Shown piece after piece: positions 1,305-16,771 of a stretch of DNA of 64,000 bases (position 1 is its first letter; each line of letters starts with the position of its first letter). The notes below the pieces were generated by a model that saw only the letters and a list, made by a program, of their open reading frames with translations, did not search any database and was not told the origin of the DNA. A program made the position numbers and the translations under genes. The DNA comes from Alphaproteobacteria bacterium (GTDB taxonomy: Bacteria > Pseudomonadota > Alphaproteobacteria > UBA9219), in contig JAGWIK010000009.1 in the NCBI GenBank assembly GCA_028866275.1, positions 8,339 through 72,338 of the forward strand. The letters are read 5' to 3'.

Positions 1305-1368
1305 GGGTGTCATGGTTCGACTTATCCCTGAGTTGTGACCTTTCATCAAACTAACCAAGGAGATCACG

Positions 1369-1734
1369 ATGAGTAAGATGCTTGAAAAGAACTATGGCTT
1401 AATCAACGCTGGCAAGAACGGCTGTCCGGGCAAACACCCCCATCCACAACCGTCAACTTCTACGGCGAGCAAGGCCGTCCTGTGCGCCGCGCTTGTTGGC
1501 CTGATGGCTGTTGGCGCTGCAGGCCAAGCCTTTGCCGCCGACAATGGCATGATGGCAGGCAAAGAAAAGTGCTACGGCATCGCCAAGGCTGGCAAGAACG
1601 ACTGCAAGTCCATGACCGGTTCGCACTCATGCGCTGGCATGTCCACCAAAGACAATGACCCCAACGACTTCAAGATGGTCAATACCGGCGAATGCGCCAA
1701 GGATGGCGGCACCATCGCGGCCCCCACGAAGTAA
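1369..1734 (+). CDS. bufA: bufferin-type RiPP precursor (DUF2282, BufA-like) with Sec signal peptide and an unusual ~30-aa N-terminal extension
   Basis: AGGAGA RBS. Core EKCYGIAKAGKNDCKS...HSCAG...GECAKDGG is typical of DUF2282. Hydrophobic h-region ends AFA/AD. Followed by DUF692, DUF2063 and DoxX. Confidence 0.7.
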   Translation: MSKMLEKNYGLINAGKNGCPGKHPHPQPSTSTASKAVLCAALVGLMAVGAAGQAFAADNGMMAGKEKCYGIAKAGKNDCKSMTGSHSCAGMSTKDNDPNDFKMVNTGECAKDGGTIAAPTK

Positions 1735-1791
1735 GAAGGCAACCGGGATACGGCCTCTGCGGAGGCCGTATCTTTTTCCTGCAGGGGAGTT

Positions 1792-2655
1792 TTGATGAGT
1801 AATCCATATCCCGATCTTGGTTTTGGCCTAGGCCTTCGTGCGCCTCATTATGAGCAGGTTTTACGCGAGAAACCCAAGGTCGATTTCTTCGAAATCATCT
1901 CCGAAAATTACATCGACGCGCATGAAGGCTATTGGGAGTATCTGGCCGATCTCCGCGCCCATTATCCGATGATCATGCATGGCGTGTCGATGAATATCGG
2001 CAGCGCCGATCCGTTCAACGACGACTATTTCCGTAAACTGAAAAAGCTGATTGACCATTTGCAACCGATCTGGGTGTCAGATCATCTGTGTTTTACAGGC
2101 CTCGGCGGCCACAACACGCATGACCTATTGCCGATCCCTTATGTTCAGGAGTCCTTGCAGCACGTTATTTCCCGTATTCATGAGGCGCAGGAAAAGCTAG
2201 GGCGGACGCTGGTGATCGAGAACCCATCGACCTATCTGGAGTTTCAAGCCTCGGATATTCCCGAATGGGAATTTCTGCGCGAAGTAGCGAAAGCGACTGG
2301 CTGCGGCGTCTTGCTCGACGTGAATAACGTCTATGTCAGCAGCTTCAATCACGGCTATGACCCGAAGCAATATATCGACGCCATCCCCGCCGATGCCATC
2401 GCCCAAATCCATCTGGCCGGACATTTGAATCTCGGCACGCACATCATCGACACGCATGACAATCATGTCATTGACGCGGTGTGGGATTTGTACGCTTACA
2501 CCGTTGCCAATAAAGGTTTGCACAGCACGATGATCGAGTGGGACGACAACATCCCCGCTTTTAATGTCCTTCTGGCTGAAATCAACAAGGCGCGCGATGT
2601 CGCCCTGCGTTCAACAACCAACGATGATGCCCATGTCTTACAACGCCGCGCTTAA
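1792..2655 (+). CDS. bufB: MNIO (DUF692) multinuclear non-heme iron oxidase, BufB-like
   Basis: N-terminus GLGLRAPHY... and overall DUF692/UPF0276 pattern; operon context with DUF2282 and DUF2063. Confidence 0.85.
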   Translation: MMSNPYPDLGFGLGLRAPHYEQVLREKPKVDFFEIISENYIDAHEGYWEYLADLRAHYPMIMHGVSMNIGSADPFNDDYFRKLKKLIDHLQPIWVSDHLCFTGLGGHNTHDLLPIPYVQESLQHVISRIHEAQEKLGRTLVIENPSTYLEFQASDIPEWEFLREVAKATGCGVLLDVNNVYVSSFNHGYDPKQYIDAIPADAIAQIHLAGHLNLGTHIIDTHDNHVIDAVWDLYAYTVANKGLHSTMIEWDDNIPAFNVLLAEINKARDVALRSTTNDDAHVLQRRA

Positions 2656-3400
2656 TCATTTACAGAGCAGCATTCTGCACGGCGATCCAGCCGAAGCCGC
2701 GTCGCTCGTGCGCCCGAAACCGCATTTGTCCGCCGAGAAGCAGTTGGGCGTTTACCTTGAAGGCTATCGGTTGCGACTTGTACAGGCTGTGCGCAATGAT
2801 TATCCCTGCCTTGGCCATTATCTCGGCGCAACGCGCATGAACGATCTGGTCGCGGCTTATGTGGAGGCGACACCTTCGTGCTCCTACAATCTCGATTTTT
2901 ATCCGTTCGGGTTTGGCGCGTTTGTCCGGCAGGCCAGTCAAGACCCGGCGGCACACGATCTCGCCGTACTAGAGCAGGCCATCGCCGAAATCTTCATGGC
3001 GCCTGACAGCAACCCACTGACCGCCGCCGTTTTTGCGCAGCTGGATCCGGAAACGCTGGGCAGTATGGTTTTCTACCCTCGCGCCGCGAACCGCCTGTTG
3101 CGCCTGACGCATGATGTCGAGCGCTACCTTGCGGCATGGAAGAAGGGCGAGCCGGAATTGACCATCGCTCCCGACAGGATTCACCTCTGTGTCTTGCGGC
3201 ACAACAACGAAGTGCAGCGGCATCGGCTGGAGCCGGAGGAATACCATCTGCTGGAAAATCTCGCGGCAGGACAAGTTTTTGGTCAGGCAATTGAGCCACC
3301 ACAGGCCAACCACCCACAAGACAGCGACCTTTTCGCCGCGAAGGTCATGAACTGGCTGCCGCGCTGGGTTGGAGAAGGTTTTTTCAAGCAGTCCATGTAA
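2624..3400 (+). CDS. bufC: DUF2063 MNIO partner protein, BufC-like (start uncertain, 2564-2633)
   Basis: Follows DUF692 with overlap; in-frame ATGs at 2624, 2627 and 2633 near the MNIO stop. Confidence 0.65.
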   Translation: MMPMSYNAALNHLQSSILHGDPAEAASLVRPKPHLSAEKQLGVYLEGYRLRLVQAVRNDYPCLGHYLGATRMNDLVAAYVEATPSCSYNLDFYPFGFGAFVRQASQDPAAHDLAVLEQAIAEIFMAPDSNPLTAAVFAQLDPETLGSMVFYPRAANRLLRLTHDVERYLAAWKKGEPELTIAPDRIHLCVLRHNNEVQRHRLEPEEYHLLENLAAGQVFGQAIEPPQANHPQDSDLFAAKVMNWLPRWVGEGFFKQSM

Positions 3401-3424
3401 CTTTCAGGCTTGTTCCCCCGAAGA
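3396..3424 (+). promoter_or_regulatory. ECF-sigma-like promoter motif copy 3 (TGTAAC-N17-CGAAGA) upstream of mini-protein B
   Basis: TGTAAC at 3396-3401, N17, CGAAGA at 3419-3424, 61 nt before the ATG at 3486; lies in the 3' end of bufC. Confidence 0.45.
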
Positions 3425-3485
3425 CGTTGGCAGAGACCAAAAACACCGTCCCATCGGGGCTAAACGTTATTTGCAGGAGGTTGTC

Positions 3486-3641
3486 ATGTCGGATTTATCC
3501 GAAAATCAAATCAAAGCTCAGGACGGCGAAAGCTGCGCAACCGGGGCCTGCGGCACCGGCATTTGCTCGCCCTGCACGATGATGAAGGTGATCATGATTG
3601 GCATGCTGGCCTTGGCTGGCTTCAAATATCTGGCGGGGTAA
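3486..3641 (+). CDS. 51-aa Cys-rich tail-anchored mini-protein B (MSDLSENQIKAQDGESCATGACGTGICSPCTMMKVIMIGMLALAGFKYLAG)
   Basis: Strong AGGAGG RBS 5 nt upstream of an internal ATG of ORF 3369..3641. Four Cys, then a Met-rich TM helix. Stop is 3 nt before DoxX. Paralogous to the 1110..1241 ORF. Confidence 0.5.
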   Translation: MSDLSENQIKAQDGESCATGACGTGICSPCTMMKVIMIGMLALAGFKYLAG

Positions 3642-3644
3642 GAA

Positions 3645-4127
3645 ATGACCAATCGGCAAACTCACGTGATCGAGAGCGGTTCAACATGCGGTACGATGTG
3701 CAAATGGATGGGGCAAGGCATGCGCGCCTATCTGGCTCTCACGAACTTTCTAAGTCCCTTGGTCTGGCTGGCGGCGCGGTTATGGATTGCGCGGGTGTTC
3801 TTCTATTCTGGATTGACCAAAATCCACGATTGGTCTTCGACGCTGTATCTTTTCGAGAACGAATACCATGTGCCGTTGCTGCCAATCCCTGTGGCGGCGT
3901 TCTCGGCGGCGCTGTTCGAATTAAGCTGTCCCGTGCTGCTCGTGCTGGGGTTCGGAACCCGTCTTGCCGCGCTGCCGCTACTGGCCATGACGGCGGTCAT
4001 CCAGTTCACCTATGACCAGAATATCGAGCATCTCTACTGGGCCTTGCTGCTCGGCCTCTTGCTGACCAACGGGCCGGGAAAACTGTCGGTCGATCATTGG
4101 GTGCGGCGGCGCTGGATGGGGCAATAA
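3645..4127 (+). CDS. bufD: DoxX family membrane protein (BufD-like)
   Basis: DoxX-like 4-TM pattern; operon position after DUF692/DUF2063. Confidence 0.7.
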   Translation: MTNRQTHVIESGSTCGTMCKWMGQGMRAYLALTNFLSPLVWLAARLWIARVFFYSGLTKIHDWSSTLYLFENEYHVPLLPIPVAAFSAALFELSCPVLLVLGFGTRLAALPLLAMTAVIQFTYDQNIEHLYWALLLGLLLTNGPGKLSVDHWVRRRWMGQ

Positions 4128-4128
4128 C

Positions 4129-4983
4129 ATGCCCCGCAACATCATCGATCTCGGCGAGCTTCATGACCGAATTGTCGTGTTTGGCGGTCCCTATAGCAAT
4201 CTTGAAGCGACCGAGGCTCTTCTAAAGACAGTTGACGATCTGGGCGTTCCGCGCAGCCATGTGCTGTGCACAGGCGATATGGTCGCGTATTGCGCCGATC
4301 CTGTCGAAGTGCTCGCCTTGTTGAGGTCGTCTGGGTTCGGCTTGCTGCTCAAGGGCAATTGCGAGGAAGCGCTGGCGAATAATGCGAAAGACTGCGGATG
4401 CGGCTTTGATGAAGGCTCGGCCTGTCATCGCCTGTCGAAGGATTGGTACAGCCACGCGGTGCAAAGCCTCGACGATGAAACAAAGCAATGGTTAGCGGGA
4501 TTGCCCGATCAGGCCGTATTCAACTTTGGGGGCAAGCGCTTCAGTGTCGTGCATGGCGGTGCCCGCCAGAATAATGCTTTCATTTTTGAAACGACGCCGC
4601 ATTCCGTTAAGCGTGAAGAAATAGAATTGGCCGGCAGTGACGCCGTTATCTGTGGCCACAGCGGCCTCTTTTTTACCGAAGTTTTTGGCGAGGCCTGTTG
4701 GCACAATGCCGGCGTTATCGGCATGCCTGCCAATGACGGAACGCCGCGCGTTTGGTACAGTGTCATCGATTCTATTCCTGAAGGCATCCGCTTTTCCCAT
4801 CTTCCTCTGGCTTACGACTTCAAAATAACCCAAGAGAAAATGCGTAAAGCAGGGTTGCCCGAAGGCTACGCTTCTGCCTTGGAGACGGGACTTTGGCCAT
4901 CGTGTGATGTTTTGACGGACGCAGAAAAGCAAAAATGCGGTGTAGAGGCGGTGCCGCGCCAGCACATTTGGAAAACGGTGTGA
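4129..4983 (+). CDS. calcineurin-like metallophosphoesterase
   Basis: VFGGPYSNLEA...GDMV and later GHSG motifs of metallophosphatases; 1-nt gap after DoxX. Confidence 0.55.
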   Translation: MPRNIIDLGELHDRIVVFGGPYSNLEATEALLKTVDDLGVPRSHVLCTGDMVAYCADPVEVLALLRSSGFGLLLKGNCEEALANNAKDCGCGFDEGSACHRLSKDWYSHAVQSLDDETKQWLAGLPDQAVFNFGGKRFSVVHGGARQNNAFIFETTPHSVKREEIELAGSDAVICGHSGLFFTEVFGEACWHNAGVIGMPANDGTPRVWYSVIDSIPEGIRFSHLPLAYDFKITQEKMRKAGLPEGYASALETGLWPSCDVLTDAEKQKCGVEAVPRQHIWKTV

Positions 4984-4998
4984 AGACAGTGCGGGGAA

Positions 4999-5676
4999 TT
5001 GATGAACAAATTTAACTTTAGTCAGCGTCTTATAAGCGAGCTACTCGGCACAGCTTTGTTGCTTGCTGTCGTTGTCGGTTCTGGAATCATGGGGGAGCGG
5101 CTGGCGGGTGGTAATGTTGCTCTTGCGCTGCTTGCCAATACTATTGCGACAGGCGCGGCGCTGGCGGTTCTTATCACAATCTTCGGGCCGATCTCCGGCG
5201 CGCATTTTAACCCCGCCGTGACCTTGGCTTTCTTTCTGAAGCGGGAAATAAATTGCCATACCGTTTTGGTCTATGTCGTAGCGCAGATTGCAGGCGGTGT
5301 GCTTGGCGTCTTTGCCGCGCACATGATGTTTGCCGAACCTGTTTTACAAATCTCGACAAAGCTACGGGACGGGTCGGCCTTGGCTTTTTCTGAATTTGTG
5401 GCGACATTCGGCCTCATGGCAACTATTCTCGGCACGGTACGTTTCAAGCCGGACTTTACGCCTGTTGCTGTTGGGCTTTATATCACCTCAGCCTATTGGT
5501 TTACGGCTTCGACCTCTTTTGCGAATCCCGCCGTGACGATTGCCCGATGCCTGTCTGATACATTCGCGGGAATTGCGCCGTCGTCCGCGCCCGTCTTTAT
5601 CGCGGCGCAGTTCCTGGGCGCGATCGTGGCTACCGCCGTGTTCGGCTGGTTGCTTAGAGAAAGGACTACCTCATGA
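4999..5676 (+). CDS. MIP family channel (aquaglyceroporin-like, possible arsenite channel)
   Basis: Two NPA boxes (HFNPAVT, FANPAVT); six TM helices. Confidence 0.85.
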   Translation: MMNKFNFSQRLISELLGTALLLAVVVGSGIMGERLAGGNVALALLANTIATGAALAVLITIFGPISGAHFNPAVTLAFFLKREINCHTVLVYVVAQIAGGVLGVFAAHMMFAEPVLQISTKLRDGSALAFSEFVATFGLMATILGTVRFKPDFTPVAVGLYITSAYWFTASTSFANPAVTIARCLSDTFAGIAPSSAPVFIAAQFLGAIVATAVFGWLLRERTTS

Positions 5677-6377
5677 CGGCGCGAACTGGACGCTTGCCGT
5701 TTGGCAGAATTATTGTCGTGGCGATCCTGCTGTCGCTGTTTGCGGCGGCATTCGCCTTCGACTTGCCGCATTACCTGACGCTTGATGCTTTGCGGGAACG
5801 GCAAATTGCGCTCAAAGCCTATCAAACGGCTCATCCATCGTTGGTCATAGCTGGGTTTTTTCTGATTTATGTTGCCGCGGCAGCGATGTCTTTCCCCGGT
5901 GCTACCGTGCTGACGTTACTGGGCGGCGCTTTGTTTGGTTTCTGGCAGGGACTTTTCGTGGTTTCTTTTGCCAGCACGATTGGGGCAACGCTGGCTTTTC
6001 TGTTGGCGCGGTATCTGTTGCGCGACTGGATTCAGAAGAAATATTACAAGCAACTTGCGATCCTGAATGCCGGATTTGAAAAGGAAGGCGCGTTTTACCT
6101 GTTCGCTTTGCGGCTCATGCCCGTATTCCCATTCTTTCTGGTCAATATCCTGACCAGCGTGATGCCGATCAAGACCCGCAGCTTCTACGGTGCAAGCCAG
6201 CTTGGCATGCTGCCGGGAACGGCGGTTTATGTTTATGCCGGGACGGAACTGGGTAAACTACAATCCGTGTCAGGTATCGCCTCACCATCGTTGATTGCTG
6301 CCTTTGTGTTGCTGGGGTTGTTTCCCTTGCTTGCTAAAAAAGGCATTTCTTATATTCGTAACCGGAGGCAAGCATGA
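5673..6377 (+). CDS. TVP38/TMEM64 (DedA/SNARE-associated) family membrane protein
   Basis: VTT-domain pattern; overlaps the neighbouring genes. Confidence 0.75.
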   Translation: MTARTGRLPFGRIIVVAILLSLFAAAFAFDLPHYLTLDALRERQIALKAYQTAHPSLVIAGFFLIYVAAAAMSFPGATVLTLLGGALFGFWQGLFVVSFASTIGATLAFLLARYLLRDWIQKKYYKQLAILNAGFEKEGAFYLFALRLMPVFPFFLVNILTSVMPIKTRSFYGASQLGMLPGTAVYVYAGTELGKLQSVSGIASPSLIAAFVLLGLFPLLAKKGISYIRNRRQA

Positions 6378-7813
6378 GCAAATACGACTATAACGTCATC
6401 GTTGTTGGCGCAGGGTCAGCCGGTTTGGTTTCCGCCTACATTGCCGCTACCGTGAAAGCTAAGGTTGCGCTGATTGAAAAGCATAAAATGGGCGGTGACT
6501 GCCTGAACACTGGATGCGTGCCCAGCAAGGCTTTGTTGCGTTCGGCTAAAATGCTGTCTTACGCCAAACGCGCCAAGGAATTCGGCTTTAACCGTACGGA
6601 AGTCGACTTTGACTTCGCCAAAGTGATGGAGCGCGTGCAGTCGGTGATCGCCTCCGTCGCGCCTCACGACTCGGTGGAACGCTATAGCCAACTGGGGGTC
6701 GCATGTATTTCCGGCGAAGCGCAAATTGTCGCGCCGCAAAAAGTGGAAGTGAATGGAAAGACGCTGACAGCGCGGAGCATCATTGTGGCGACGGGAGCAC
6801 GACCTTTGATTCCGCCAATTCCTGGGCTTGATCGGATAGACCATCTGACCAGCGACACGGTGTGGAATCTCCGCGAATTGCCGAAGCGTCTCGTTGTGCT
6901 TGGCGGCGGGCCGATTGGCGCGGAAATGGCGCAAGCTTTTGCGCGCCTTGGTTCCGACGTCACGATTGTCGAAATGGCTTCGCATCTTCTGGTGCGCGAA
7001 GACGCCGAGGTTATTGATCTGATCGCGCAACGTTTCCGCAACGAGGGCCTTACCGTTCTGACCGAACACAAGGCCAAGGCGTTCAGCAACAAGGATGGCC
7101 AGAAGGTTCTGACCTGCGAACACAATGGCAAGGATGTCGAAATTCCTTTCGATCAAATTATCGTCGCCCTAGGACGGCAGGCCAATATCAAGGGATTCGG
7201 CCTGGAGGAATTGGGCGTTAAACTCAGCCCGCGCAAAACCATCGAGGCCGACGCGTTTTTAGAAACCAACATCCCCAATCTTTATGTCTGCGGCGATGTG
7301 ACAGGACCATATCAGTTCACCCATACCGCCGCGCATCAGGCGTGGTACGCTTCCGTGAACGCGCTGTTCTCACCCTTCAAGCGTTTCAAGGTTGATTACG
7401 GCGTCATTCCATGGACGACCTTTACCGATCCGGAAGTCGCGCGTGTCGGCCTCAACGAGAAAGACGCCAAGGCGCAGAACATCCCCTACGAAGTCACGAC
7501 CTACGGCCTCGACGATCTTGACCGCGCCATCGCCGACAGCGAAGCACATGGCTTCGTGAAGGTTCTGACGGTTCAGGGCAAAGACAAAATTTTGGGTGTG
7601 ACCATTGTCGGAACACATGCCGGCGACATTATCCCTGAATTTATCCTTGCGATGAAGCACGGTTTGGGGCTGAACAAGATTCTTGGCACAATCCATATTT
7701 ATCCGACGCTTGGCGAGGCCAACAAATACGCGGCGGGCGCGTGGCGCAAAGCCCATGTTCCAGCCCTTGGATTAGCTGTTCTAAAAGTATTTCATGCATG
7801 GAGAAGGAATTAA
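6374..7813 (+). CDS. FAD-dependent pyridine nucleotide-disulfide oxidoreductase (mercuric reductase / dihydrolipoamide dehydrogenase-like, no NmerA and no C-terminal Cys pair)
   Basis: GAGSAG FAD motif; redox-active CLNTGCVPSK; dimerisation-domain C-terminus. Confidence 0.8.
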   Translation: MSKYDYNVIVVGAGSAGLVSAYIAATVKAKVALIEKHKMGGDCLNTGCVPSKALLRSAKMLSYAKRAKEFGFNRTEVDFDFAKVMERVQSVIASVAPHDSVERYSQLGVACISGEAQIVAPQKVEVNGKTLTARSIIVATGARPLIPPIPGLDRIDHLTSDTVWNLRELPKRLVVLGGGPIGAEMAQAFARLGSDVTIVEMASHLLVREDAEVIDLIAQRFRNEGLTVLTEHKAKAFSNKDGQKVLTCEHNGKDVEIPFDQIIVALGRQANIKGFGLEELGVKLSPRKTIEADAFLETNIPNLYVCGDVTGPYQFTHTAAHQAWYASVNALFSPFKRFKVDYGVIPWTTFTDPEVARVGLNEKDAKAQNIPYEVTTYGLDDLDRAIADSEAHGFVKVLTVQGKDKILGVTIVGTHAGDIIPEFILAMKHGLGLNKILGTIHIYPTLGEANKYAAGAWRKAHVPALGLAVLKVFHAWRRN

Positions 7814-7814
7814 A

Positions 7815-8786
7815 ATGGAAGGAAGCGCATTTATTGCCAGCTTCGGCAAAACGCTAAAAGACCACAACCTCACAATTGAGCGGAAAGCCGTAACGACTCT
7901 ACAAGTCAATATCGGCAAGCTGTGCAATCAGGCTTGCCACCATTGCCATGTCGAGGCGGGCCCCAAACGCACTGAAATCATGGAACGGCGCACCATCGAC
8001 CGTATTCTCGAACTTCTGGCAAACGAACCGCAGATAACGCTGGTGGATATTACCGGCGGTGCACCAGAACTCAATCCGCACTTCCGCGACTTTGTGAAAG
8101 TCCTTCGCAACATGGGTAAAGGCGTGATTGATCGCTGCAATCTTACCGTTCTGTTTGAAGAGGGACAGGAAGACACGGCTGAATTTCTTGCCCAACAGAA
8201 AGTGCAGATCGTCGCCTCGCTGCCCTGTTATCTGGAAGATAATGTTAACAAACAGCGCGGGCAAGGCGTATTCGGCAAAAGCATCGCTGCGCTGGAAAGA
8301 CTGAACGTCTTGGGGTATGGCCGCACGGGAAGCGGATTGGAAATCAATCTTGTTTACAACCCCGTCGGCACGCACCTTCCTCCAGCCCAAGAAAAACTCG
8401 AAGCCGATTATCGCCAGTATCTTTCAGAGAATTACGGCATTACCTTCAATCATCTCTTTACAATCACCAACATGCCGATCAAACGATTTGCCCATATGTT
8501 GGAACGTGATGGTTTTGCTGAGCAATACATGCAGCTTTTGATTGACAATTTTAACGTAGGTGCGGCTCGGCAAGTGATGTGTACGCAGCTTATTTCCATT
8601 GGCTGGGATGGCAAGCTGTATGATTGCGACTTTAACCAGATGCTTGGGATTCCGCTGAATTTCAAATCACGCACACTCTGGGACATTCCCTCGTTCGCGT
8701 CGCTGGATCGCGGTATTGCCTTCGCCGACCATTGCTTCGGATGCACGGCGGGCGCGGGAAGCTCGTGTACCGGTGCCTTGCTTTAA
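7815..8786 (+). CDS. arsS: arsenosugar biosynthesis radical SAM protein ArsS (Cys-containing, not Sec)
   Basis: CNQACHHCH radical-SAM motif; C-terminus CFGCTAGAGSSCTGALL; GGAGAAGG RBS before the ATG at 7815; adjacent to arsM. Confidence 0.8.
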   Translation: MEGSAFIASFGKTLKDHNLTIERKAVTTLQVNIGKLCNQACHHCHVEAGPKRTEIMERRTIDRILELLANEPQITLVDITGGAPELNPHFRDFVKVLRNMGKGVIDRCNLTVLFEEGQEDTAEFLAQQKVQIVASLPCYLEDNVNKQRGQGVFGKSIAALERLNVLGYGRTGSGLEINLVYNPVGTHLPPAQEKLEADYRQYLSENYGITFNHLFTITNMPIKRFAHMLERDGFAEQYMQLLIDNFNVGAARQVMCTQLISIGWDGKLYDCDFNQMLGIPLNFKSRTLWDIPSFASLDRGIAFADHCFGCTAGAGSSCTGALL

Positions 8787-8809
8787 CAATCCGCAACAGG
8801 AGATAAAAC

Positions 8810-9862
8810 ATGACTTCATCCGCCCAAGCCGTACAAAAAGACGTTCAGGAATATTACGGTGAAACACTGCAAAGCAGTGCCGATCTCAAGACCAGCGCCT
8901 GTTGTCCCATCGACAGCATGCCCGTACATTTGCAGCCTTATCTAAAAAAAGTCCACGCGGAAGTGCAGGAGAAATTTTACGGCTGCGGCTCGCCTATTCC
9001 CCAAGCACTGGAAGGCATGACGGTTCTTGATTTGGGGTGCGGCACAGGGCGTGATGTTTATGTTCTATCGCAATTAGTCGGAACAAAAGGCAAGGTGATC
9101 GGTGTGGATATGACCGAAGCGCAGCTCGCTGTTGCGAGGAAACATATCGCCTACCACACGGAAGCCTTTGGTTATCAGAAGCCGAATGTCGAATTTCACC
9201 ATGGCTATATCGAAAATCTCAAGACCATCGGCATTGCCGACACTTCGATTGATATCGTTGTGTCGAACTGCGTTATCAATCTTTCACCAGACAAAGAAGC
9301 TGTGTTCCGCGAGATTTTCCGCGTCCTGAAACCCGGCGGCGAGCTTTATTTCTCCGACGTCTTCACCGGACGGCGCGTGCCGAAAGCCCTGCAACACGAC
9401 AAGGAATTGCTGGGCGAATGCCTCGGCGGCGCGATGTATGTCGAGGATTTCCGGCGCATGTTGCGCAAGATCGGTTGCCTTGATTGCCGGATGATGAGTA
9501 AAGGACGCATTGCGCTCAACGAACCGTCTGTCGAACAGAAGGCCGGTATGATCGACTTTTATTCGATCACCGTTCGCGCCTTCAAATGCGACCTCGAAGA
9601 TATTTGTGAGGATTACGGCCACGTCGTCACTTACAAAGGCACGGTGGCCGAAGCGCCGCATGCCTTCCGGCTTGACGATCATCATCTGTTCAAGACAGGC
9701 ATGCCGGAACGCGTCTGCGGCAATACATGGAAAATGCTGATGGAAACGCGGTTTTCTCCGCACTTTTCTTCCATGGGGGATTTCTCGACCCACTACGGCG
9801 CGTTCGATTGCGCGCCAGCCACAGGAACGGAAAGCAACGCGCCCTCCGGCGCATGCTGCTAA
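8810..9862 (+). CDS. arsM: arsenite S-adenosylmethionine methyltransferase ArsM
   Basis: N-terminal YYGETLQSSADLKTSACCP conserved Cys pair; SAM-binding LDLGCGTG; additional Cys. Confidence 0.8.
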   Translation: MTSSAQAVQKDVQEYYGETLQSSADLKTSACCPIDSMPVHLQPYLKKVHAEVQEKFYGCGSPIPQALEGMTVLDLGCGTGRDVYVLSQLVGTKGKVIGVDMTEAQLAVARKHIAYHTEAFGYQKPNVEFHHGYIENLKTIGIADTSIDIVVSNCVINLSPDKEAVFREIFRVLKPGGELYFSDVFTGRRVPKALQHDKELLGECLGGAMYVEDFRRMLRKIGCLDCRMMSKGRIALNEPSVEQKAGMIDFYSITVRAFKCDLEDICEDYGHVVTYKGTVAEAPHAFRLDDHHLFKTGMPERVCGNTWKMLMETRFSPHFSSMGDFSTHYGAFDCAPATGTESNAPSGACC

Positions 9863-9880
9863 ATAACAACAAGAAGGAAT

Positions 9881-10732
9881 GTGAATATGCTTGGCATTAT
9901 CGGCGGAACCGGATTCTACAAACTCGAAGGGCTTGAGATCATCGAAGAGATGGATGTTTCCACTCCCTATGGCAAACCGTCGGCGCCTTTAGGCAAAGCA
10001 CGTTATGCCGGCAAGGAATTGTTTTTTCTGCCGCGCCACGGCGCGCATCATCAGTTCTTGCCGCATGAAGTCAATTACCGCGCGAATATCTATGCGTTGA
10101 AGCAAGCGGGGGTGCGGCAAATTGTCGGTTTCTCCGCCGTGGGCAGTTTGCGCGAGGAGATAGCACCGGGGGATCTTGCCATTCCCACGCAATATATAGA
10201 TTGGATTAAAGATGGTCGCATCAAGACTTTCTTTGGCAACGGCGTGACGGCGCATGTCTCGACAGCGGAACCCGTCTGCCCGAATCTTGTTAAGGGATTG
10301 GCCGAAGCGGCAGAGCGAATAAATGCAAAGCTTCACACCGGAAAAACATACATCTGCGTCGATGGCCCCCGCCTCGGCACGCGGGCGGAAAGCCATTTCT
10401 TCCGGCAAATCGGCGGCGATCTGGTCGGCATGACGAATGTGCCGGAGGTGTTTCTGGCGCGGGAAGCGCAGATAGCCTACGCGACAGTTGGTATCGCCAC
10501 CGATTACGATTGCTGGAAAGATAACCCCGCCGATCACGCCGACACCGCGACGATCATCGCGCGTTATGGCGCAAGCCTGCAAAAAGCCAACCTGCTGCTC
10601 AGAAACTTTCTTGAGCATGTTTTGCCGGAACCAAGCACGGCAAGCCGCGAGAGCCTGAAAGGTGCAGTGATGACGCCAGATCATGCGCTTTCGGCAAAGG
10701 CAAAAGAACTGCTGGCTGTGTTAAGAGCATGA
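9881..10732 (+). CDS. mtnP: S-methyl-5'-thioadenosine phosphorylase-like (PNP/MTAP family)
   Basis: IIGGTGFY N-terminus and GMTNVPE motif of MTAP. Confidence 0.8.
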   Translation: MNMLGIIGGTGFYKLEGLEIIEEMDVSTPYGKPSAPLGKARYAGKELFFLPRHGAHHQFLPHEVNYRANIYALKQAGVRQIVGFSAVGSLREEIAPGDLAIPTQYIDWIKDGRIKTFFGNGVTAHVSTAEPVCPNLVKGLAEAAERINAKLHTGKTYICVDGPRLGTRAESHFFRQIGGDLVGMTNVPEVFLAREAQIAYATVGIATDYDCWKDNPADHADTATIIARYGASLQKANLLLRNFLEHVLPEPSTASRESLKGAVMTPDHALSAKAKELLAVLRA

Positions 10733-11418
10733 AACTTTCGGTCATCATTCCGTTGGCTGAAGGCGAACAGGCTTGGCGCGATCTGCTGCCCGATCTTGCC
10801 GCCTTGCCTGCGGACAGCGAGGTTATCCTTGCGCTGCCGCAGGATGCCTCTCCACTCGATCTGCCGGCGATCCATTCCTCCCTCACCATACGGCAAGTGC
10901 GCGAAGGCTCCGGACGCGCCCGGCAGATGAACGCGGCGGCGCGCACAGCCCAAGGCGCTCAATTGTGGTTCCTTCACGCGGACTCCCGCCTGCATCCGGA
11001 GACGATACCTGCCTTGTTGCGCAGGCTGGGGGAATATCCCGACTGGCTGCTTTATGCCGATCTTGTCTTTTCCGCAGATGCGCCTTTCCTGATGAAGCTG
11101 AACGAAATGGGGGTTTGGTTTCGCTCCCATGCGCTTGGCATGCCCTTTGGCGATCAGGGGCTGTGCATCAGAAAAAAGACTTTCTATGAACTTGGCGGTT
11201 ACCCTGAAGATGTCGCGTATGGCGAAGACCATGTCTTCGTCTGGCGAGCGCGGCAGCGCGGCATCCGTCTGCGCCCTATGGGTGCACGCCTAACCACAAG
11301 CGCGCGCAAATACTGCGAGCGCGGCTGGCTGAAGACAACGCATTTGCATCTTTGTCTCACTCTGAGGCAGGCATGGCCGGAGTGGCGTAGACTTATGATG
11401 TCGGGTGATAAGGCATGA
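10729..11418 (+). CDS. family 2 glycosyltransferase associated with rSAM/ArsS clusters (TIGR04283-like)
   Basis: GT-A fold signature; position in the ars cluster. Confidence 0.6.
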   Translation: MKLSVIIPLAEGEQAWRDLLPDLAALPADSEVILALPQDASPLDLPAIHSSLTIRQVREGSGRARQMNAAARTAQGAQLWFLHADSRLHPETIPALLRRLGEYPDWLLYADLVFSADAPFLMKLNEMGVWFRSHALGMPFGDQGLCIRKKTFYELGGYPEDVAYGEDHVFVWRARQRGIRLRPMGARLTTSARKYCERGWLKTTHLHLCLTLRQAWPEWRRLMMSGDKA

Positions 11419-12122
11419 CCGGCGCGCTCGCCATCTTCGCTAAAACGCCTGGATTGTCGCCGGTTAAGACGCGACTTGCCACCGCTATCGGCGTTAAAAA
11501 GGCGGAAGAATTCTACCAGCATAGCGCCAAATGCGTCGAGGAACTCGCGCTTGATGCTTCGCGCATGAGCGAAGGCAGTCTTGTTCCTTACTGGGCGGTA
11601 GGCGAGCAAAACGGCCATGATCATCCTTTATGGATGAACATGAATCGTCTTTGGACTGGGCGTGGCGATTTAGGTGACCGGCTGCACCATGTTTACGCTA
11701 CGCTTCTGCAACAGCACGACCACGTTATCCTGATTGGCACCGACAGCCCCCAGCTTCCGGTTTCAGCCGTTCTAACCGCTCATGAGCATTTGAAGCGTAA
11801 AACCGGTCCTGTCATCGGCCCGGCGGATGACGGCGGTTACACTCTTTTCGGAGGGCATGTGCCCCTGCCACAGGCGTTATGGACGTCCGTGACCTACAGC
11901 GTCTCTACGACATGCGCAGATTTTGCAAAAAAGCTGAAGCCTTATGGCCCCATCCTGTTTCTTGAGCAAAGTTACGATATCGACATTCTGGACGATGTGA
12001 CAAAGCTACGAAACGATGAGGCCCGCATGATCGGCAAGGCTCAAAAAGCGCTGCTGGCATGGATTGAGCAGAATGTAACTTTCCGTGCGCATCCGGCGAA
12101 TGAGTACGAAGTCGTCGATTGA
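11415..12122 (+). CDS. DUF2064 / TIGR04282-like transferase associated with ArsS clusters
   Basis: N-terminal AIFAKTPGLSPVKTRL pattern; 4-nt overlaps with neighbours. Confidence 0.55.
   Translation: MTGALAIFAKTPGLSPVKTRLATAIGVKKAEEFYQHSAKCVEELALDASRMSEGSLVPYWAVGEQNGHDHPLWMNMNRLWTGRGDLGDRLHHVYATLLQQHDHVILIGTDSPQLPVSAVLTAHEHLKRKTGPVIGPADDGGYTLFGGHVPLPQALWTSVTYSVSTTCADFAKKLKPYGPILFLEQSYDIDILDDVTKLRNDEARMIGKAQKALLAWIEQNVTFRAHPANEYEVVD
12074..12102 (+). promoter_or_regulatory. ECF-sigma-like promoter motif copy 4 (TGTAAC-N17-CGAATG) internal to the array, upstream of DUF547-P450
   Basis: TGTAAC at 12074-12079, N17, CGAATG at 12097-12102, 34 nt before the ATG at 12137. Confidence 0.45.
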
Positions 12123-12136
12123 CCGGTGGAGTTTTT

Positions 12137-12889
12137 ATGAAAATCAGACTGATTACGTTTTTAACACTTTTGTTGGGCTTGTTTCTTACGGGCACGGCTC
12201 CGGCTTTGGCCTCCGACGACTACCTGACGCCTTATGACGGCTTGCTGGCGCAATATGTGAAGCCCGGCAACAAAGATGGCATTAACGCGGCGCTGGTCGA
12301 TTATCGCGGCTGGGCCAGAGATCCCCGGCATCTTCAGGCCATGGTGTCCTTGCAAAAGGCCAATCCGGAGACGCTTATCTCACGCGAAGAAAAAGCCTTC
12401 TGGATCAACGCTTACAATCTGCTGACCATCGATTTAATCATCCACCACCCCGACATTGCCAGCATCAAAGACCTCGGCAACTTATTGCAAAGTCCGTGGA
12501 AGGCCTATGACTGGAAGATTGGCGGCCACACTTATACGCTCGACGATATTGAGCAGAGGATTCTGCGCAAGCGCAACGATCCGCGCATTCACATGGCCAT
12601 TGTTTGCGCCTCGCTGTCTTGCCCCGATCTTCGTAATGAAGCCTATCGCGCAGATAAACTGGATGCTCAGCTTGACGATCAAGCCAGGAGGTTCCTGTCC
12701 AATCCCGCCAAGGGACTCAAAGTCATGCCTTCAGGCGTCATCCTGTCACCCATTCTGAAATGGTATGCGGAAGACTTTGGCGACGAAAAAGGCGTATTGG
12801 CTTTTGTTGCGCATTATGCCGTTGGTGTGCCGACCGGCGCAACCATTGATGATTATTTTACTTATAACTGGAATTTAAATCGTCCATGA
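12137..12889 (+). CDS. DUF547 domain secreted protein
   Basis: ATG at 12137 with GGTGGAG RBS; signal peptide MKIRLITFLTLLLGLFLTGTAPALA; the ORF-track start at 12119 is a TTG. Confidence 0.55.
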   Translation: MKIRLITFLTLLLGLFLTGTAPALASDDYLTPYDGLLAQYVKPGNKDGINAALVDYRGWARDPRHLQAMVSLQKANPETLISREEKAFWINAYNLLTIDLIIHHPDIASIKDLGNLLQSPWKAYDWKIGGHTYTLDDIEQRILRKRNDPRIHMAIVCASLSCPDLRNEAYRADKLDAQLDDQARRFLSNPAKGLKVMPSGVILSPILKWYAEDFGDEKGVLAFVAHYAVGVPTGATIDDYFTYNWNLNRP

Positions 12890-14373
12890 ATATCGGCACA
12901 AGTTCAAATCTATATGCTCCGTTTACCATTCGAGAATTGTTCAAACTTGGCGCGGCTTATATAGGGCTGCGCTATATGCCGGAGGTTCTTGGCGAATTGG
13001 TTGGACCGCAAACGCGGTATGGCGACCGCCGCCGCATCCGGAATCCCTTGCCCTTCGGCGCCTTCCGTGAAGCCATCCTGCTTGCCAATCCTTTGGATAT
13101 TCAGGCCGTTTTGAAAGACCATGGGGTGGAGCGTCCGGATTGCATACGCCACAGTTTCCAAATGACGAGTAAGAAGGACAATGCCTTCACAGCGCATGGC
13201 GATGTTCGAAAAAGACAGTTGAAGGATTTTTATGACTCCATGGCTCTGAAAACAGGCGTTGCCAATGAAGGAAAGTTGGAAGCTTTCGTTCGGCAGGAGA
13301 TTGCGGGTTGGCCACGATCCATCGACGATCTTGGCGATCAACTGACGATTCTCACGGCACGCACTTTATGCTACACATTCTTTGGCTATGACATGCCGCC
13401 GGACGAGGCCATAGCCATGAATCGCGCTTATAGCGGCGGGCTGCAAAACAACGTCCTGATAGGGTCGTTGATCCGGGCCTTTACCTGCAAAGGCAGTGAA
13501 AGCCTGCCTTTGCTCAACACGCCCCAAGCGGTAAAGGTTTTTCGCCAGATCACGGACAAGATCATTGGCAACGCTTTGGGGGTCGGAAGAGAACATTTTC
13601 CTGATAATTTCCTCAACAAGCTGATGACCAGCACAGGCTATTGGGACAATCCCTGTGACAAAAACGCGCGCGAGGAAGTGGCGGCGCAATTGACCATTCT
13701 CTTGGCCGGAGGCCATGAAGCACCGCGTAGCATGCTGTTCTGGGCGCTTAATCATGTCGCACGCGATAAAGCCGTTCAGGATACATTGAGTGATGAAGCA
13801 CGTATGGCTGCGTCTTCAGAAATGTCCGAGCCTTCCGTCAAGAAACGCCCCTTTGCCGTGAGCGTTCTGCTGGAATCCATGCGGCTCTACCCACCCGCCT
13901 TCGTCCTGTTTAAAACACCGGCCAACGATGTCAGGCTCCCGGACGGTGAAATCATCAGGCCGAAAACCTTGATTATGTTGCCGACAGCAGTCGTTCACCG
14001 CGATTCACGCCATTACGAGGCAGCGGATGAATTTCATCCGTACAATATGGATCATGCGCACATCAAAGCGCGACCAGCCGGGGCCTATCTGACCTTCGGG
14101 CGCGGTCCACACACCTGTCCTGGGCAGGGATTCGCCCTGCAGTTCGGCGCCATCGTCCTCGGTGAAATTCTTAACGAGAATAGGCTTGTTGCTCCCAATC
14201 CGGACATGCCACGCCCATCCAGTAAGGCGGTCATAGGCTCTCCAGCCGGAAGCCGCCTTGTGCTGCAACGGCGTGACAATTCTGGAGAAACGCATGCCCA
14301 CGTTTCTCCCTCACACCCTCAGGAAAACCCTAAAGCGCCCCAATGCCCGTTCAACTGGCATAGGTATTTATAA
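12886..14373 (+). CDS. cytochrome P450
   Basis: Heme-binding loop FGRGPHTCPGQGFA; ExxR present; ATGA overlap with the DUF547 stop. Confidence 0.85.
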   Translation: MNIGTSSNLYAPFTIRELFKLGAAYIGLRYMPEVLGELVGPQTRYGDRRRIRNPLPFGAFREAILLANPLDIQAVLKDHGVERPDCIRHSFQMTSKKDNAFTAHGDVRKRQLKDFYDSMALKTGVANEGKLEAFVRQEIAGWPRSIDDLGDQLTILTARTLCYTFFGYDMPPDEAIAMNRAYSGGLQNNVLIGSLIRAFTCKGSESLPLLNTPQAVKVFRQITDKIIGNALGVGREHFPDNFLNKLMTSTGYWDNPCDKNAREEVAAQLTILLAGGHEAPRSMLFWALNHVARDKAVQDTLSDEARMAASSEMSEPSVKKRPFAVSVLLESMRLYPPAFVLFKTPANDVRLPDGEIIRPKTLIMLPTAVVHRDSRHYEAADEFHPYNMDHAHIKARPAGAYLTFGRGPHTCPGQGFALQFGAIVLGEILNENRLVAPNPDMPRPSSKAVIGSPAGSRLVLQRRDNSGETHAHVSPSHPQENPKAPQCPFNWHRYL

Positions 14374-14405
14374 ATAAACAACCGCAGCGGTTTGACGAAG
14401 AGCGA

Positions 14406-15383
14406 TCATCGTGTCCGCGAATGACTGCGGCGAAGTGCCTCGTCCTCGCTCATACCACAATCGAGGCCGCCACGCTCGACGCCCTCGCGCCCGAAGCCGG
14501 CTTCCGCGACATCATCGCCTGCATTGCCGACTATCCCCTCAAGCAGATCGATCACCTCCTGCCGTGAAACGTCAAGCCCTGCCTCAGTGACCATTGGGAG
14601 GCGCGCATGGCGAAAGGGTTGCGTCAACATTCGATCAATACGCATTTCTTCCTTTTCGCGGAATTGCTCTAGCCCAATCTTCATCCTGTCATGTCCTTGC
14701 TCCGGCTGCGCGCGATAGGTACCGAACAGGCGATCCCATAGGGAGATGTTGAATCCGTAATTGCTGTTGATTTCGGCAACCGCCACTGAATGATGCACAC
14801 GGTGCATATCGGGTGTGACGAGGATGCGACGAAGTCTTTGATCCCATTTCGCCGGAAGCGCGATATTGCCATGATTGAACATGGCGCAGGCGTTTAAAAT
14901 GATTTCGAAAAACAGGACGGCTTCCGGCGGCGCGCCGATTGCGGCTACGGCGGCGAATTTAATAGCCATAGAGATAAGGATTTCAACGGGGTGAAACCGA
15001 AGCGCGGTCGTTACATCAAATTCAATGTCGGCATGATGAACACGGTGCAATCGCCACAAGATAGGAACTTTATGAAAAGTGACATGTTGGAAGTAAATCA
15101 TCAGGTCAAGAAACACCAGAGTCAGAAAGATATTCGCCAAAAAAGGCAGGCCAAAAAGAGGCAGAAAGCCCCACTGATGCTGGTTGACGCTAAGGGCAAA
15201 TCCAGCCAACGATACAGGAAAGACAAGACGCAGCACCGCAATATCCAGAATAACCAGCGCCAGATTGTGCGGCCAACGGTCACGGCGGCGTGTCTGTTGC
15301 GGCCGCCGCGGCCAAAAAGACTCAGCCACGGCCATAATGACGAAGACACCAAGGAAGACCGAAAGACGAAGAATATTTTCCAT
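14406..15383 (-). CDS. fatty acid hydroxylase / sterol desaturase superfamily membrane protein
   Basis: His boxes HRVHHAD and HRVHHS; multi-TM N-terminus. Confidence 0.75.
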   Translation of the reverse strand: MENILRLSVFLGVFVIMAVAESFWPRRPQQTRRRDRWPHNLALVILDIAVLRLVFPVSLAGFALSVNQHQWGFLPLFGLPFLANIFLTLVFLDLMIYFQHVTFHKVPILWRLHRVHHADIEFDVTTALRFHPVEILISMAIKFAAVAAIGAPPEAVLFFEIILNACAMFNHGNIALPAKWDQRLRRILVTPDMHRVHHSVAVAEINSNYGFNISLWDRLFGTYRAQPEQGHDRMKIGLEQFREKEEMRIDRMLTQPFRHARLPMVTEAGLDVSRQEVIDLLEGIVGNAGDDVAEAGFGREGVERGGLDCGMSEDEALRRSHSRTR

Positions 15384-15390
15384 GCCGCTT

Positions 15391-16098
15391 CTATTCAGCC
15401 GTAAAATGCAGATCGCGGTAATAGCCCGTCGCGGGCAACCCGCTATTATCGCAATCGGTCATAATCGCTACACCGTCAATGTTCGTAACGTCCATCCCAA
15501 ATAAGTTTTTGAAATCCTCGCGCACGTTGCGGACTTCGCTGACCCATCGCTCTGGCGTTGCAGGCTGTCCGGAACGCAGCGCGACCATCATGGCTTGATC
15601 CGTAAAGGCGTTCGGCCATGAGCTACCCACTGGCTGGCGGTTCGCCCACACATAATCGATTGCTTTTGTTCGCCACGGCATCAATGCGCTAGGCGCATAA
15701 ACGACATAAACGCGCGCGGCGTAATCGTCTCCGGCTTTGGTGGTATCATCCAAATCAGGATGCACCCCATCCGCGCGCCAGAACCAGCGCAGCACCGGCG
15801 TGCGCGTGAGGTCAACGGACATTCGGCGATACAAAGCCGAAGCCGTATCCTTGCATGTCGCCCGCAAGGTGTCCTGACCGATCAACTGGTAATTCGTATG
15901 CCCTTTGAATGAGCGTTCATCCCAGCTGGCCATTTCGTCATGGCTAAAGGTTCCAATCAACACGTCTTCAGCTAATGCGACGTTAGATTCCCCAGCTGTT
16001 GCCAGAAAGATCAAACCTATGAACAGGACAAACTGGACTTTAGGGTAATGCCTATACAGCCAGTGAGCAACGCGATTGAGCCATGAATTCATCTGCAC
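15391..16098 (-). CDS. DUF3047 family secreted protein
   Basis: Signal-peptide-like N-terminus; domain-pattern recognition only. Confidence 0.45.
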   Translation of the reverse strand: MQMNSWLNRVAHWLYRHYPKVQFVLFIGLIFLATAGESNVALAEDVLIGTFSHDEMASWDERSFKGHTNYQLIGQDTLRATCKDTASALYRRMSVDLTRTPVLRWFWRADGVHPDLDDTTKAGDDYAARVYVVYAPSALMPWRTKAIDYVWANRQPVGSSWPNAFTDQAMMVALRSGQPATPERWVSEVRNVREDFKNLFGMDVTNIDGVAIMTDCDNSGLPATGYYRDLHFTAE

Positions 16099-16113
16099 AT
16101 CCCGAAAATCTCT

Positions 16114-16770
16114 TTAGGCCGCTGTTTTCCAGTGAGGCGGCAATGTTTTAGAAAAATAGGGAAGATTTTCGACCTCCGTTTTCCATGTTTTCAGGTTTTC
16201 GGGCATAGTGGCCAGCAGATCGTAGTTGCTGTTCTTGAGCTTCAATCTTCCCAACATCGCTATCAATGGATAAAAACAAAAATCGACCGCACATGGCGCG
16301 TTGCCGTGAAAGAACTTCCCTTTTATTCCGGTCGCCAGCATTTCAAGATTGCTGGTGACGACATTGCTGGCGGTTTCGACGACCGAGGCATCGAGCAACC
16401 CTTCCGGCTTTATCAGCAGCTCCTCCACCATGCGGCGCACGGGTGGAAAGAGGTAGGCGTCCATCTCATAGATGGTTCGCCGGGCAATGGCGCGGTCTTT
16501 CGGTTCGCACGGCCAGATCGAAGGCGTTTGATCCTGAAAGGTTTCTTCAAGATATTCCAGAATGGCCATTGATTCATAAAGGGCGAAGCCGTCATGGACA
16601 ATCGCCGGCGCTCTGCCGCGCGGATTGATGGCGCGATATTCGGGCGTCTGGAGTTCGCCTTTGTCTCGGCTGAGAACATGCAGCTCGTAAGGAATATTCT
16701 TGTATTCCAATGCAAGCCACACACGCCATGCAAACGGAGAGCCGGAGAGATAGTAAAAGGACAGAGCCAT
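16114..16770 (-). CDS. glutathione S-transferase
   Basis: N-terminal thioredoxin-like GST domain LSFYYLSGSPFAWRVWLALEYKNIPYE. Confidence 0.8.
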   Translation of the reverse strand: MALSFYYLSGSPFAWRVWLALEYKNIPYELHVLSRDKGELQTPEYRAINPRGRAPAIVHDGFALYESMAILEYLEETFQDQTPSIWPCEPKDRAIARRTIYEMDAYLFPPVRRMVEELLIKPEGLLDASVVETASNVVTSNLEMLATGIKGKFFHGNAPCAVDFCFYPLIAMLGRLKLKNSNYDLLATMPENLKTWKTEVENLPYFSKTLPPHWKTAA

Positions 16771-16771
16771 G

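Follow-up and report, generated by a model that had tools for sequence, protein, structure and literature searches.

What is made by an arsenic gene cluster that lies directly behind a bufferin operon, and is there a reason for the two to stand side by side? The question is raised by a 64,000-nucleotide stretch of alphaproteobacterial DNA (lineage UBA9219; contig JAGWIK010000009.1, positions 8,339 to 72,338; hereafter the window), in which genes for ArsM, an As(III) S-adenosylmethionine (SAM) methyltransferase, and ArsS, a radical SAM enzyme, are embedded in a long plus-strand array. We consider it probable, on balance, that these genes belong to a metal(loid)-stress island, which would encode every step by which inorganic arsenic is turned into a 5-dimethylarsinoyl-riboside (an arsenosugar that may be linked to lipid), placed under extracytoplasmic function (ECF) sigma-F/NrsF-type control together with the bufferin operon.

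The array runs unbroken on the plus strand from 4129 to 14373: the map of open reading frames (ORFs) and the junction table give a largest gap of 23 nt and six 4-nt overlaps (ATGA at 5673, 6374, 10729, 11415 and 12886; TTGA at 12119). An earlier note on this DNA had described the plus-strand order from metallophosphoesterase to P450, with an ATGA overlap at 12886, and a fatty-acid hydroxylase and a DUF3047 protein converging from the minus strand: order and overlap are reproduced by the ORF map and junction table, the convergent pair is found at 14406–15383 and 15391–16098, and all family assignments recur with Pfam and NCBIfam. Its statement that gaps of 0–25 nt prevail from position 1369 holds within 4129–14373 (23 nt or less) and fails upstream, where bufA and bufB are separated by 57 nt and the DUF2063 and DoxX genes by 244 nt. 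Later starts for ArsS (7815) and for the MTAP-like phosphorylase (9887) are suggested by homolog alignments. The genes of the array, and the convergent pair, are:

4129–4983, plus strand: metallophosphoesterase (Pfam/NCBIfam)
4999–5676, plus strand: MIP-family channel with two NPA boxes (Pfam/NCBIfam)
5673–6377, plus strand: DedA/VTT-domain membrane protein (Pfam/NCBIfam)
6374–7813, plus strand: FAD/NAD(P)H disulfide reductase (Pfam/NCBIfam)
7794 (likely start 7815)–8786, plus strand: ArsS radical SAM enzyme (TIGR04167)
8810–9862, plus strand: ArsM, As(III) SAM methyltransferase (matches to solved structures)
9881 (likely start 9887)–10732, plus strand: MTAP-family nucleoside phosphorylase of the "GPRLGT" subclade (TIGR01694)
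10729–11418, plus strand: family 2 glycosyltransferase (GT2), TIGR04283-like (GT2 Pfam domain)
11415–12122, plus strand: DUF2064/TIGR04282-like protein with a GT-A/CofC-like nucleotidyltransferase fold (PF09837)
12119 (or 12137)–12889, plus strand: DUF547 protein (Pfam/NCBIfam)
12886–14373, plus strand: cytochrome P450, a near-orphan (PF00067, 6e-31)
14406–15383, minus strand: FA_hydroxylase-family membrane di-iron enzyme, convergent (Pfam/NCBIfam)
15391–16098, minus strand: DUF3047 protein, conserved partner of the hydroxylase (Pfam/NCBIfam)

The beginning of the proposed route is the best defined. ArsS scores 447.5 bits against TIGR04167 (cutoff 300 bits) and so passes the equivalog test; its radical SAM motif CX3CX2C (C44, C48, C51) and the C-terminal HCxGCTAGxGSSCGG are invariant in 21 sequences, and a DUF3641 domain is present (PF12345, 2e-54). 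The protein is predicted to adenosylate dimethylarsenite, an activity established for the family: conversion of dimethylarsenite (DMAs(III)) to 5'-deoxy-5'-dimethylarsinoyl-adenosine (DDMAA) is documented (PMC13598754; PMC12159101), and productive turnover consumes the adenosyl radical, 5'-deoxyadenosine not being released (PMC13598754). ArsM matches solved ArsM structures (5evj, 1e-106; 4fr0, CmArsM, 7e-93) and keeps the arsenic-binding cysteines, with the SACC, GCG, SNCV and GECL motifs all aligning. It falls below two NCBIfam cutoffs (PRK11873, 196 against 263; the arsenosugar-type NF038099, 115 against 400), and by sequence it is a member of the ArsM superfamily that stands outside the cyanobacterial arsenosugar subtype. 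The description of the locus as an arsenosugar-type cluster is supported by the ArsS score (447 against 300 bits) and by the ArsM structure matches (1e-106).

An arsenosugar pathway made up of ArsM and ArsS has reportedly been described in cyanobacteria (Synechocystis; Xue et al. 2019; Cheng et al. 2021, as cited in PMC12159101). The first two enzymes are the same in the window, where ArsS passes the TIGR04167 test, whereas the window's host is an alphaproteobacterial heterotroph (its best matches are metagenome-assembled genomes (MAGs) of Alphaproteobacteria), its ArsM is not of the "AsSugarArsM" type, and its cluster adds about ten further conserved genes without roles assigned in the literature searched.

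The constancy of these further genes was assessed in 80 ArsS loci from one-genome-per-species GTDB contigs (the best 80 of more than 600, without phylogenetic weighting), in seven close relatives retrieved by exact-protein look-up, in one locus with a DedA::DUF547 fusion (L167) and in 80 MTAP loci from metagenomes. All-against-all clustering of the ORFs of 83 ArsS loci returned exactly the window's genes as the commonest neighbors: reductase and ArsM (22 each), TIGR04282 and TIGR04283 (17 each), MTAP and DedA (10 each), FA-hydroxylase and DUF547 (8 each), DUF3047 (5) and metallophosphoesterase (4). The recurring core, seen in about 90 loci of other bacteria, consists of DedA, the FAD disulfide reductase, ArsS, ArsM, the MTAP-like phosphorylase, the TIGR04283 GT2 and TIGR04282/DUF2064, with DUF547, FA-hydroxylase and DUF3047 as frequent extras. 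The inclusion of the MTAP-like gene, both GT-like genes, DUF547, FA-hydroxylase and DUF3047 in the cluster is thus borne out by their recurrence beside ArsS in many unrelated genomes. A gene order this tight and conserved across many genomes is not a chance pattern; nor is the linkage mere shared ancestry, because the loci – drawn from Alpha-, Beta- and Gammaproteobacteria, from Bdellovibrionota and from further groups – differ in gene order (ArsS-FAH-MTAP in L001, L002 and L005; ArsS-MTAP in L004 and L007; ArsS-ArsM-MTAP in the alphaproteobacterial clade).

The alphaproteobacterial relatives, with ArsS 77–82% identical, keep DedA-reductase-ArsS-ArsM-MTAP-GT-DUF2064 and the convergent FAH-DUF3047 pair, and vary at the flanks: upstream stand MsrB, MsrA and a metallophosphoesterase (L082) or a bufferin operon plus PHO4 or MIP (L081, L168), downstream a CDP-alcohol phosphatidyltransferase, a low-molecular-weight (LMW) phosphatase or DUF547. 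The LMW phosphatase of L081 was not found in the window. The metallophosphoesterase recurs in L004, L074, L082, L083 and L169. FA-hydroxylase appears with DUF3047 as a conserved companion; its gene is convergent in L081, L082, L165 and L168, and L001, L002, L005 and L169 carry it in line.

The step after ArsS would fall to the MTAP-like phosphorylase, which the earlier note had seen as well placed to phosphorolyse dimethylarsinoyl-adenosine. The protein scores 289.5 against TIGR01694 (cutoff 274.85) and retains the RHG, GMT and TDYDCW motifs: fold and phosphate-, ribose- and adenine-binding motifs are those of the MTAP/MtnP of methionine salvage. It departs from the salvage enzyme in two respects. 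First, the canonical Phe-Ser pair is absent; the window enzyme has GPRLGT, and all in-line ArsS-linked MTAPs carry GPRLG(T/S), whereas solved MTAPs and most metagenomic homologs carry GP(Q/R)FS(T/S). The Leu-Gly pair aligns with F177/S178 of human MTAP, residues that presumably line the purine/5'-substituent pocket; the window enzyme is 39% identical to human MTAP. Second, the gene lies between arsM and the GT genes, not among salvage genes. Where a metagenomic homolog had 3 kb or more of flanking sequence, ArsS-cluster genes lay beside it in 8 of 12 cases for Leu-Gly MTAPs, versus 5 of 41 for Phe-Ser MTAPs (Fisher p = 5e-4, a test that ignores phylogeny), and the MTAP gene is nearly always immediately followed by GT2 and DUF2064 genes. 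The clustered MTAPs, to judge from the signature and its context, are a distinct Leu-Gly subclade; such a subclade fits the proposed phosphorolysis, the chemistry of which we infer.

MTAP-family enzymes are known to process 5'-deoxyadenosine, and the window protein might be a housekeeping or salvage enzyme that clears 5'-deoxyadenosine (from abortive ArsS turnover) or 5'-methylthioadenosine and so relieves product inhibition, with no role in building an arsenosugar. Consistent with this, it passes the equivalog cutoff with all catalytic motifs kept, canonical Phe-Ser MTAPs occasionally adjoin ArsS (L074, L107, L134, L145), and the window shows no second MTAP. However, the productive ArsS reaction uses up the adenosyl radical without release of 5'-deoxyadenosine, the Leu-Gly subclade is enriched beside ars genes, and the position of GT2 and DUF2064 directly after the MTAP gene suggests that a ribose-1-phosphate product is passed on. 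Because ArsS consumes the radical and these two genes follow, biosynthetic phosphorolysis of dimethylarsinoyl-adenosine appears more likely than salvage of a by-product, and a pure salvage role seems to us unlikely.

If phosphorolysis of dimethylarsinoyl-adenosine does take place, the two GT-like genes are the candidates for what follows. Both adjoin the ArsS cluster and best match the NCBIfam models TIGR04283 and TIGR04282 ("arsenosugar biosynthesis glycosyltransferase"), family names that rest on co-occurrence, with scores just under the cutoffs: 167 bits against 182 for the TIGR04283-like GT2, in which the GT2 Pfam domain is present and the synteny is that of the family, and 121 against 134 for the TIGR04282-like protein, which exceeds the PF09837 threshold (64.6 against 25.8). 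Compared with the PDB, the TIGR04282 profile matches 3cgx (9e-43; uncharacterised, GT-A-like), then 2i5e (0.03) and 6bwg (0.2), two CofC/FbiD guanylyltransferases that are, weakly, its nearest characterised relatives; the KTRL and DxD motifs are invariant in TIGR04282 proteins. By these features the protein resembles CofC-type nucleotidyltransferases more closely than it does glycosyltransferases.

The products of MTAP-type enzymes are alpha-ribose-1-phosphates; the alpha configuration would be kept by a nucleotidyltransferase, whereas GT2 enzymes invert, and natural arsenosugars are beta-ribofuranosides. MTAP, the TIGR04282 protein and GT2 would thus make a stereochemically coherent route, because an alpha phosphate that is first retained and then inverted yields a beta-riboside. 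The whole path may be pictured as follows. As(III) would enter through the MIP channel, in whose slot relatives have a PHO4 arsenate/phosphate carrier; ArsM would make dimethylarsenite and ArsS would attach to it the 5'-deoxyadenosyl group of SAM, with 5'-deoxy-5'-dimethylarsinoyl-adenosine as the product, both being established activities of their families. From here conserved linkage points to the Leu-Gly MTAP paralog, which would phosphorolyse adenine to leave 5-dimethylarsinoyl-alpha-ribose-1-phosphate; the CofC-like TIGR04282 protein might then, more tentatively, activate this arsenic sugar phosphate to an NDP-sugar, and the inverting GT2 would transfer the arsenoribose to a glycerol or lipid acceptor as a beta-riboside. 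An arsenosugar phospholipid as end product is hinted at by other loci: in L081 and L168 the gene for a CDP-alcohol phosphatidyltransferase stands between those for DUF2064 and DUF547, and in L167 one follows the DedA::DUF547 fusion.

DedA, the disulfide reductase and DUF547 would appear to form a separate membrane/redox module. DedA and the reductase occur as a pair in 22 ArsS loci, and DUF547 – with a signal peptide, an invariant CxxxxC motif and a confident structure model for which no solved structural relative was found – accompanies the two even without ArsS (L046, L065, L087, L167). A protein 100% identical to the window's DUF547 is on record from an Alphaproteobacteria MAG. The natural fusion of L167 (3170–4396, P0379), flanked by a frameshifted disulfide reductase and the CDP-alcohol phosphatidyltransferase with no ArsS nearby, is evidence of the "Rosetta-stone" kind for a single, lipid-linked module of DedA, reductase and DUF547. 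The flavoprotein carries a CLNTGC redox-active motif and a His-Glu dyad and lacks the C-terminal Cys pair of MerA: it is therefore a disulfide reductase and not a mercuric reductase, and MerA-like metal reduction was rejected.

The module also enters into an alternative reading of the end product. ArsS, ArsM and their partners may use another substrate, or give for example an exported small organoarsenical, with no arsenosugar or arsenolipid at the end; or DedA-reductase-DUF547 may serve selenium, tellurium or general membrane repair. Such a reading can draw on the module of L167 (which, with its CDP-alcohol transferase, stands without ArsS), on L057, where ArsS follows a bufferin operon and is the only ars gene within 10 kb, on the scores of the GT-like proteins below their family cutoffs, and on the literature searched, in which no measured product was found for such heterotroph clusters. 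In keeping with the earlier note, which knew of no biochemically established end product in heterotrophs, no paper assigning the downstream steps was found, and none of relevance that links arsenosugars with MTAP, a phosphorylase or a glycosyltransferase, an absence that is weak evidence since most subscription journals lay outside the search. Set against a different product are the ArsS of the window, a high-scoring equivalog of a characterised enzyme, the As(III)-binding cysteines of its ArsM, and the linkage of a phosphorylase, a nucleotidyltransferase-like protein and an inverting GT2, which fits riboside formation specifically. We give this alternative little credence.

The second part of the question concerns the operon for bufferin, a copper-binding peptide. 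Upstream of the array, on the same strand, are found:

1110–1241, plus strand: Cys-rich ORF of 43 aa that ends in a C-terminal transmembrane helix
1369–1734, plus strand: BufA1-type bufferin precursor (DUF2282; PF10048, 5e-24)
1792–2655, plus strand: BufB, MNIO bufferin maturase (NF050167, 362 bits, cutoff 310)
2564–3400 (true start probably near 2624–2633), plus strand: BufC, the DUF2063 partner (Pfam/NCBIfam)
3486–3641, plus strand: Cys-rich ORF of 51 aa, previously unlisted, after an 85-nt gap; it has a transmembrane helix, and its Shine-Dalgarno sequence is GGAGG
3645–4127, plus strand: DoxX, a BufD/HvfX-like membrane protein (Pfam/NCBIfam)

DUF2282 precursor, MNIO BufB, DUF2063 partner and DoxX thus occur in the order of a Buf1 cluster. 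The same order is found in the Caulobacter sigma-F/NrsF heavy-metal regulon, where buf1ABCD is preceded by GTAACC-N16-CGAA upstream of bufA (PMC3511200, PMC11626156), the Caulobacter sigma-F site (PMC3511200); the counterpart in the window is GTAACT-N16-CGAA. The window holds five matches to GTAACY-N16-CGAA, where 0.13 are expected and no shuffle of 100 gave more than one. All five are on the plus strand, 19–67 nt upstream of start codons:

1022–1047, plus strand: sigma-F-type motif GTAACT-N16-CGAA (consensus match), 63 nt before the 43-aa ORF
1277–1302, plus strand: sigma-F-type motif (consensus match), 67 nt before bufA
3397–3422, plus strand: sigma-F-type motif (consensus match) in the 85-nt gap, predicted start of a 51-aa ORF-DoxX-ars unit
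12075–12100, plus strand: internal sigma-F-type motif (consensus match) in the last part of the DUF2064 gene, ahead of DUF547-P450
19361, plus strand: fifth sigma-F-type motif (consensus match), before a CMD-MgtC gene pair

Elsewhere the regulators themselves are found with the arsenic genes. In L002 (Methylophilaceae), which lacks bufferin genes, SigF-NrsF and a motif stand directly ahead of an ars cluster that begins PHO4-DedA-reductase-ArsS; in L169 the order is motif-SigF-NrsF-motif-small Cys-rich ORF-porin-phosphoesterase, continuing as far as ArsS; and in L081 and L168 a SigF-NrsF pair is divergent from bufA1, with motifs of the form GTAACC-N15-CGTA. Because of the five motifs, and of SigF-NrsF upstream of ars clusters elsewhere, bufferin and arsenic genes look like one regulon with several promoters, and membership of one ECF regulon would explain their juxtaposition. 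The serial motifs at 1277, 3397 and 12075 argue for co-regulation from several candidate start sites with probable read-through, not for a single obligatory transcript. These motifs across bufferin and ars genes are the new element of this analysis: in contrast to that of Caulobacter, the regulon of the window and of L002, L081, L168 and L169 appears to include an arsenic-biotransformation pathway, and the window lacks the sigma and anti-sigma genes. A scan for sigma-70 promoters and intrinsic terminators gave site counts equal to shuffle expectation. A weak hairpin followed by a T-run (1758–1770, between bufA and bufB) might attenuate read-through.

The adjacency of bufferin and ars genes, remarked on in the earlier note, recurs in L081 and L168, and L057 and L107 show it in another form. 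In the Arenicellales locus L057 the order is BufA-BufB-BufC-DoxX-ArsS, with a 12-nt gap; DoxX is directly upstream of ArsS in L030, L051 and L057; and in L107 BufB-BufC stands beside a divergent ArsM/ArsS pair. As read from these gene orders, the juxtaposition is one that arose more than once, in at least three arrangements. That the two gene sets are unrelated neighbors in a metal-resistance island, their adjacency without regulatory or functional meaning, might be argued from the unbiased GTDB set (BufB in only 1 and DoxX in 3 of 80 ArsS loci), from the close relatives L082 and L165, which are without bufferin genes, from the MNIO survey paper, which reports no arsenic association, and from a nearby CusCBA-type RND system of the kind expected in such an island, but we hold it very improbable given the at least three arrangements (window, L081 and L168; L057; L107), the same sigma-F-type motif before bufA and before the DoxX-ars block, and the SigF-NrsF genes that, where bufferin genes are absent, stand directly before an ars cluster (L002) or before an operon that continues into one (L169). 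The surveyed bufferin papers contain no occurrence of "arsen".

Several observations weigh against a sigma-F-controlled riboside route. The steps after ArsS are read from linkage, motifs and weak homology: the TIGR04283 and TIGR04282 scores lie just under the NCBIfam cutoffs, the CofC similarity of TIGR04282 is weak, and ArsM scores far under the cyanobacterial "arsenosugar ArsM" model (115 against 400). MTAP is found within 10 kb of ArsS in only 7 of the 80 GTDB loci, so that the MTAP step is not universal across ArsS loci or is often encoded elsewhere; 4 of the 12 Leu-Gly-type MTAPs have no ars genes nearby, and the Fisher test on the signature is uncorrected for phylogeny. By tblastn, neither the CDP-alcohol phosphatidyltransferase of L081 nor a sigma-F or NrsF gene was found anywhere in the 64 kb. 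The promoter motifs, for their part, agree with a consensus from Caulobacter and are not measured start sites.

The P450 was named in the earlier note as part of the cluster, and as a conserved member it did not survive comparison: it is absent from all of roughly 170 related loci, and of 1.84 billion representative proteins just one exceeds 30% identity to it, a fragment of 178 aa from a contig of 751 bp. The heme loop (FGRGPHTCPG, FxxGxxxCxG) and the ExxR motif (ESMR) are present; in the I-helix the acid-alcohol pair is lacking (AGGHEA, Ala replacing Thr). By its motifs and its overlap with DUF547 it is a real, translationally coupled gene, and since it is a near-orphan that no related locus examined carries, it is best described as a private, lineage-specific accessory. 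As to the channel, we infer that the window's MIP is an As(III)/glycerol channel. The slot is filled by MIP in L168 and by PHO4 in L081 and L002; phosphate-type uptake proteins (Porin_O_P/PHO4) in this position lie at L169 4273–5655, L002 6797–7906 and L081 6777–7877, which suggests deliberate intake of arsenate or arsenite, or a link to phosphate limitation.

Further features of the bufferin region deserve mention. The two small Cys-rich ORFs of the window each have a C-terminal hydrophobic helix; L169 (3722–3847) has a 41-aa ORF that likewise has a Cys-rich N-terminal part, and all three (43, 51 and 41 aa) lie directly downstream of a sigma-F-type motif and have no Pfam or NCBIfam match. They could be metal-binding peptides or unrecognised precursors of ribosomally synthesised and post-translationally modified peptides. 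In L081 (5871–6308) and L168 (6324–6761) the slot between BufC and DoxX is occupied by a membrane protein of 145 aa that contains the GDCCVxC domain for metal binding (NF041374, 9e-29), to which the window's 51-aa ORF is unrelated. The window's BufA is 121 aa long (86–88 aa in relatives), the signal peptide being preceded by an N-terminal extension of about 35 residues, among them a Cys and a His/Pro-rich stretch.

Of the flanking genes, a PAP2-family gene (lipid phosphate phosphatase type; 411–968, plus strand) lies just upstream of the first sigma-F-type motif. The fifth motif is followed by a carboxymuconolactone-decarboxylase-family (CMD; AhpD-like) gene at 19432–20007 and an MgtC-family gene at 20020–20721, which suggests that both are members of the predicted regulon. 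Between 14406 and 19254 the minus strand carries TetR, a 138-aa ORF, SRPBCC, a 118-aa ORF, MAPEG, GST, DUF3047 and FAH (largest gap 114 nt); only the last two are conserved in relatives, and the GST/MAPEG pair could, speculatively, bear on thiol-dependent reduction of pentavalent methylarsenicals. Downstream, at 22863–28557, is an efflux system of the resistance-nodulation-division (RND) type (CusB/CusA/outer-membrane factor; HlyD_D23, ACR_tran, OEP), consistent with a metal-resistance island. An Rfam scan of 1–20000 gave no riboswitch or other family, only one chance match far below the gathering score.

Arsenosugars and arsenolipids dominate the arsenic of marine food webs. Bacteria have been proposed, in a preprint, as an overlooked source of the arsenolipids of the ocean (10.1101/2021.03.22.436501). 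The locus described here bears on how dimethylarsinoyl-adenosine is converted to arsenosugars and arsenolipids, and on which bacteria make these compounds: it offers a compact, conserved candidate gene set for the later arsenosugar steps, and in GPRLGT a sequence signature by which a dedicated phosphorylase may be sought in genomes. A bolder version, which we put forward only tentatively, is that heterotrophs possess a metal-sensing ECF sigma-F/NrsF regulon that would lead from arsenic import to arsenosugar phospholipids by way of the Leu-Gly MTAP, the CofC-like TIGR04282 protein and an inverting GT2, with bufferin and DoxX as partners – for example in periplasmic As(III) buffering or redox – and not concerned with copper alone. 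Arsenic biotransformation within a sigma-F/NrsF metal-stress regulon alongside bufferins would, if true, widen the known scope of both systems.

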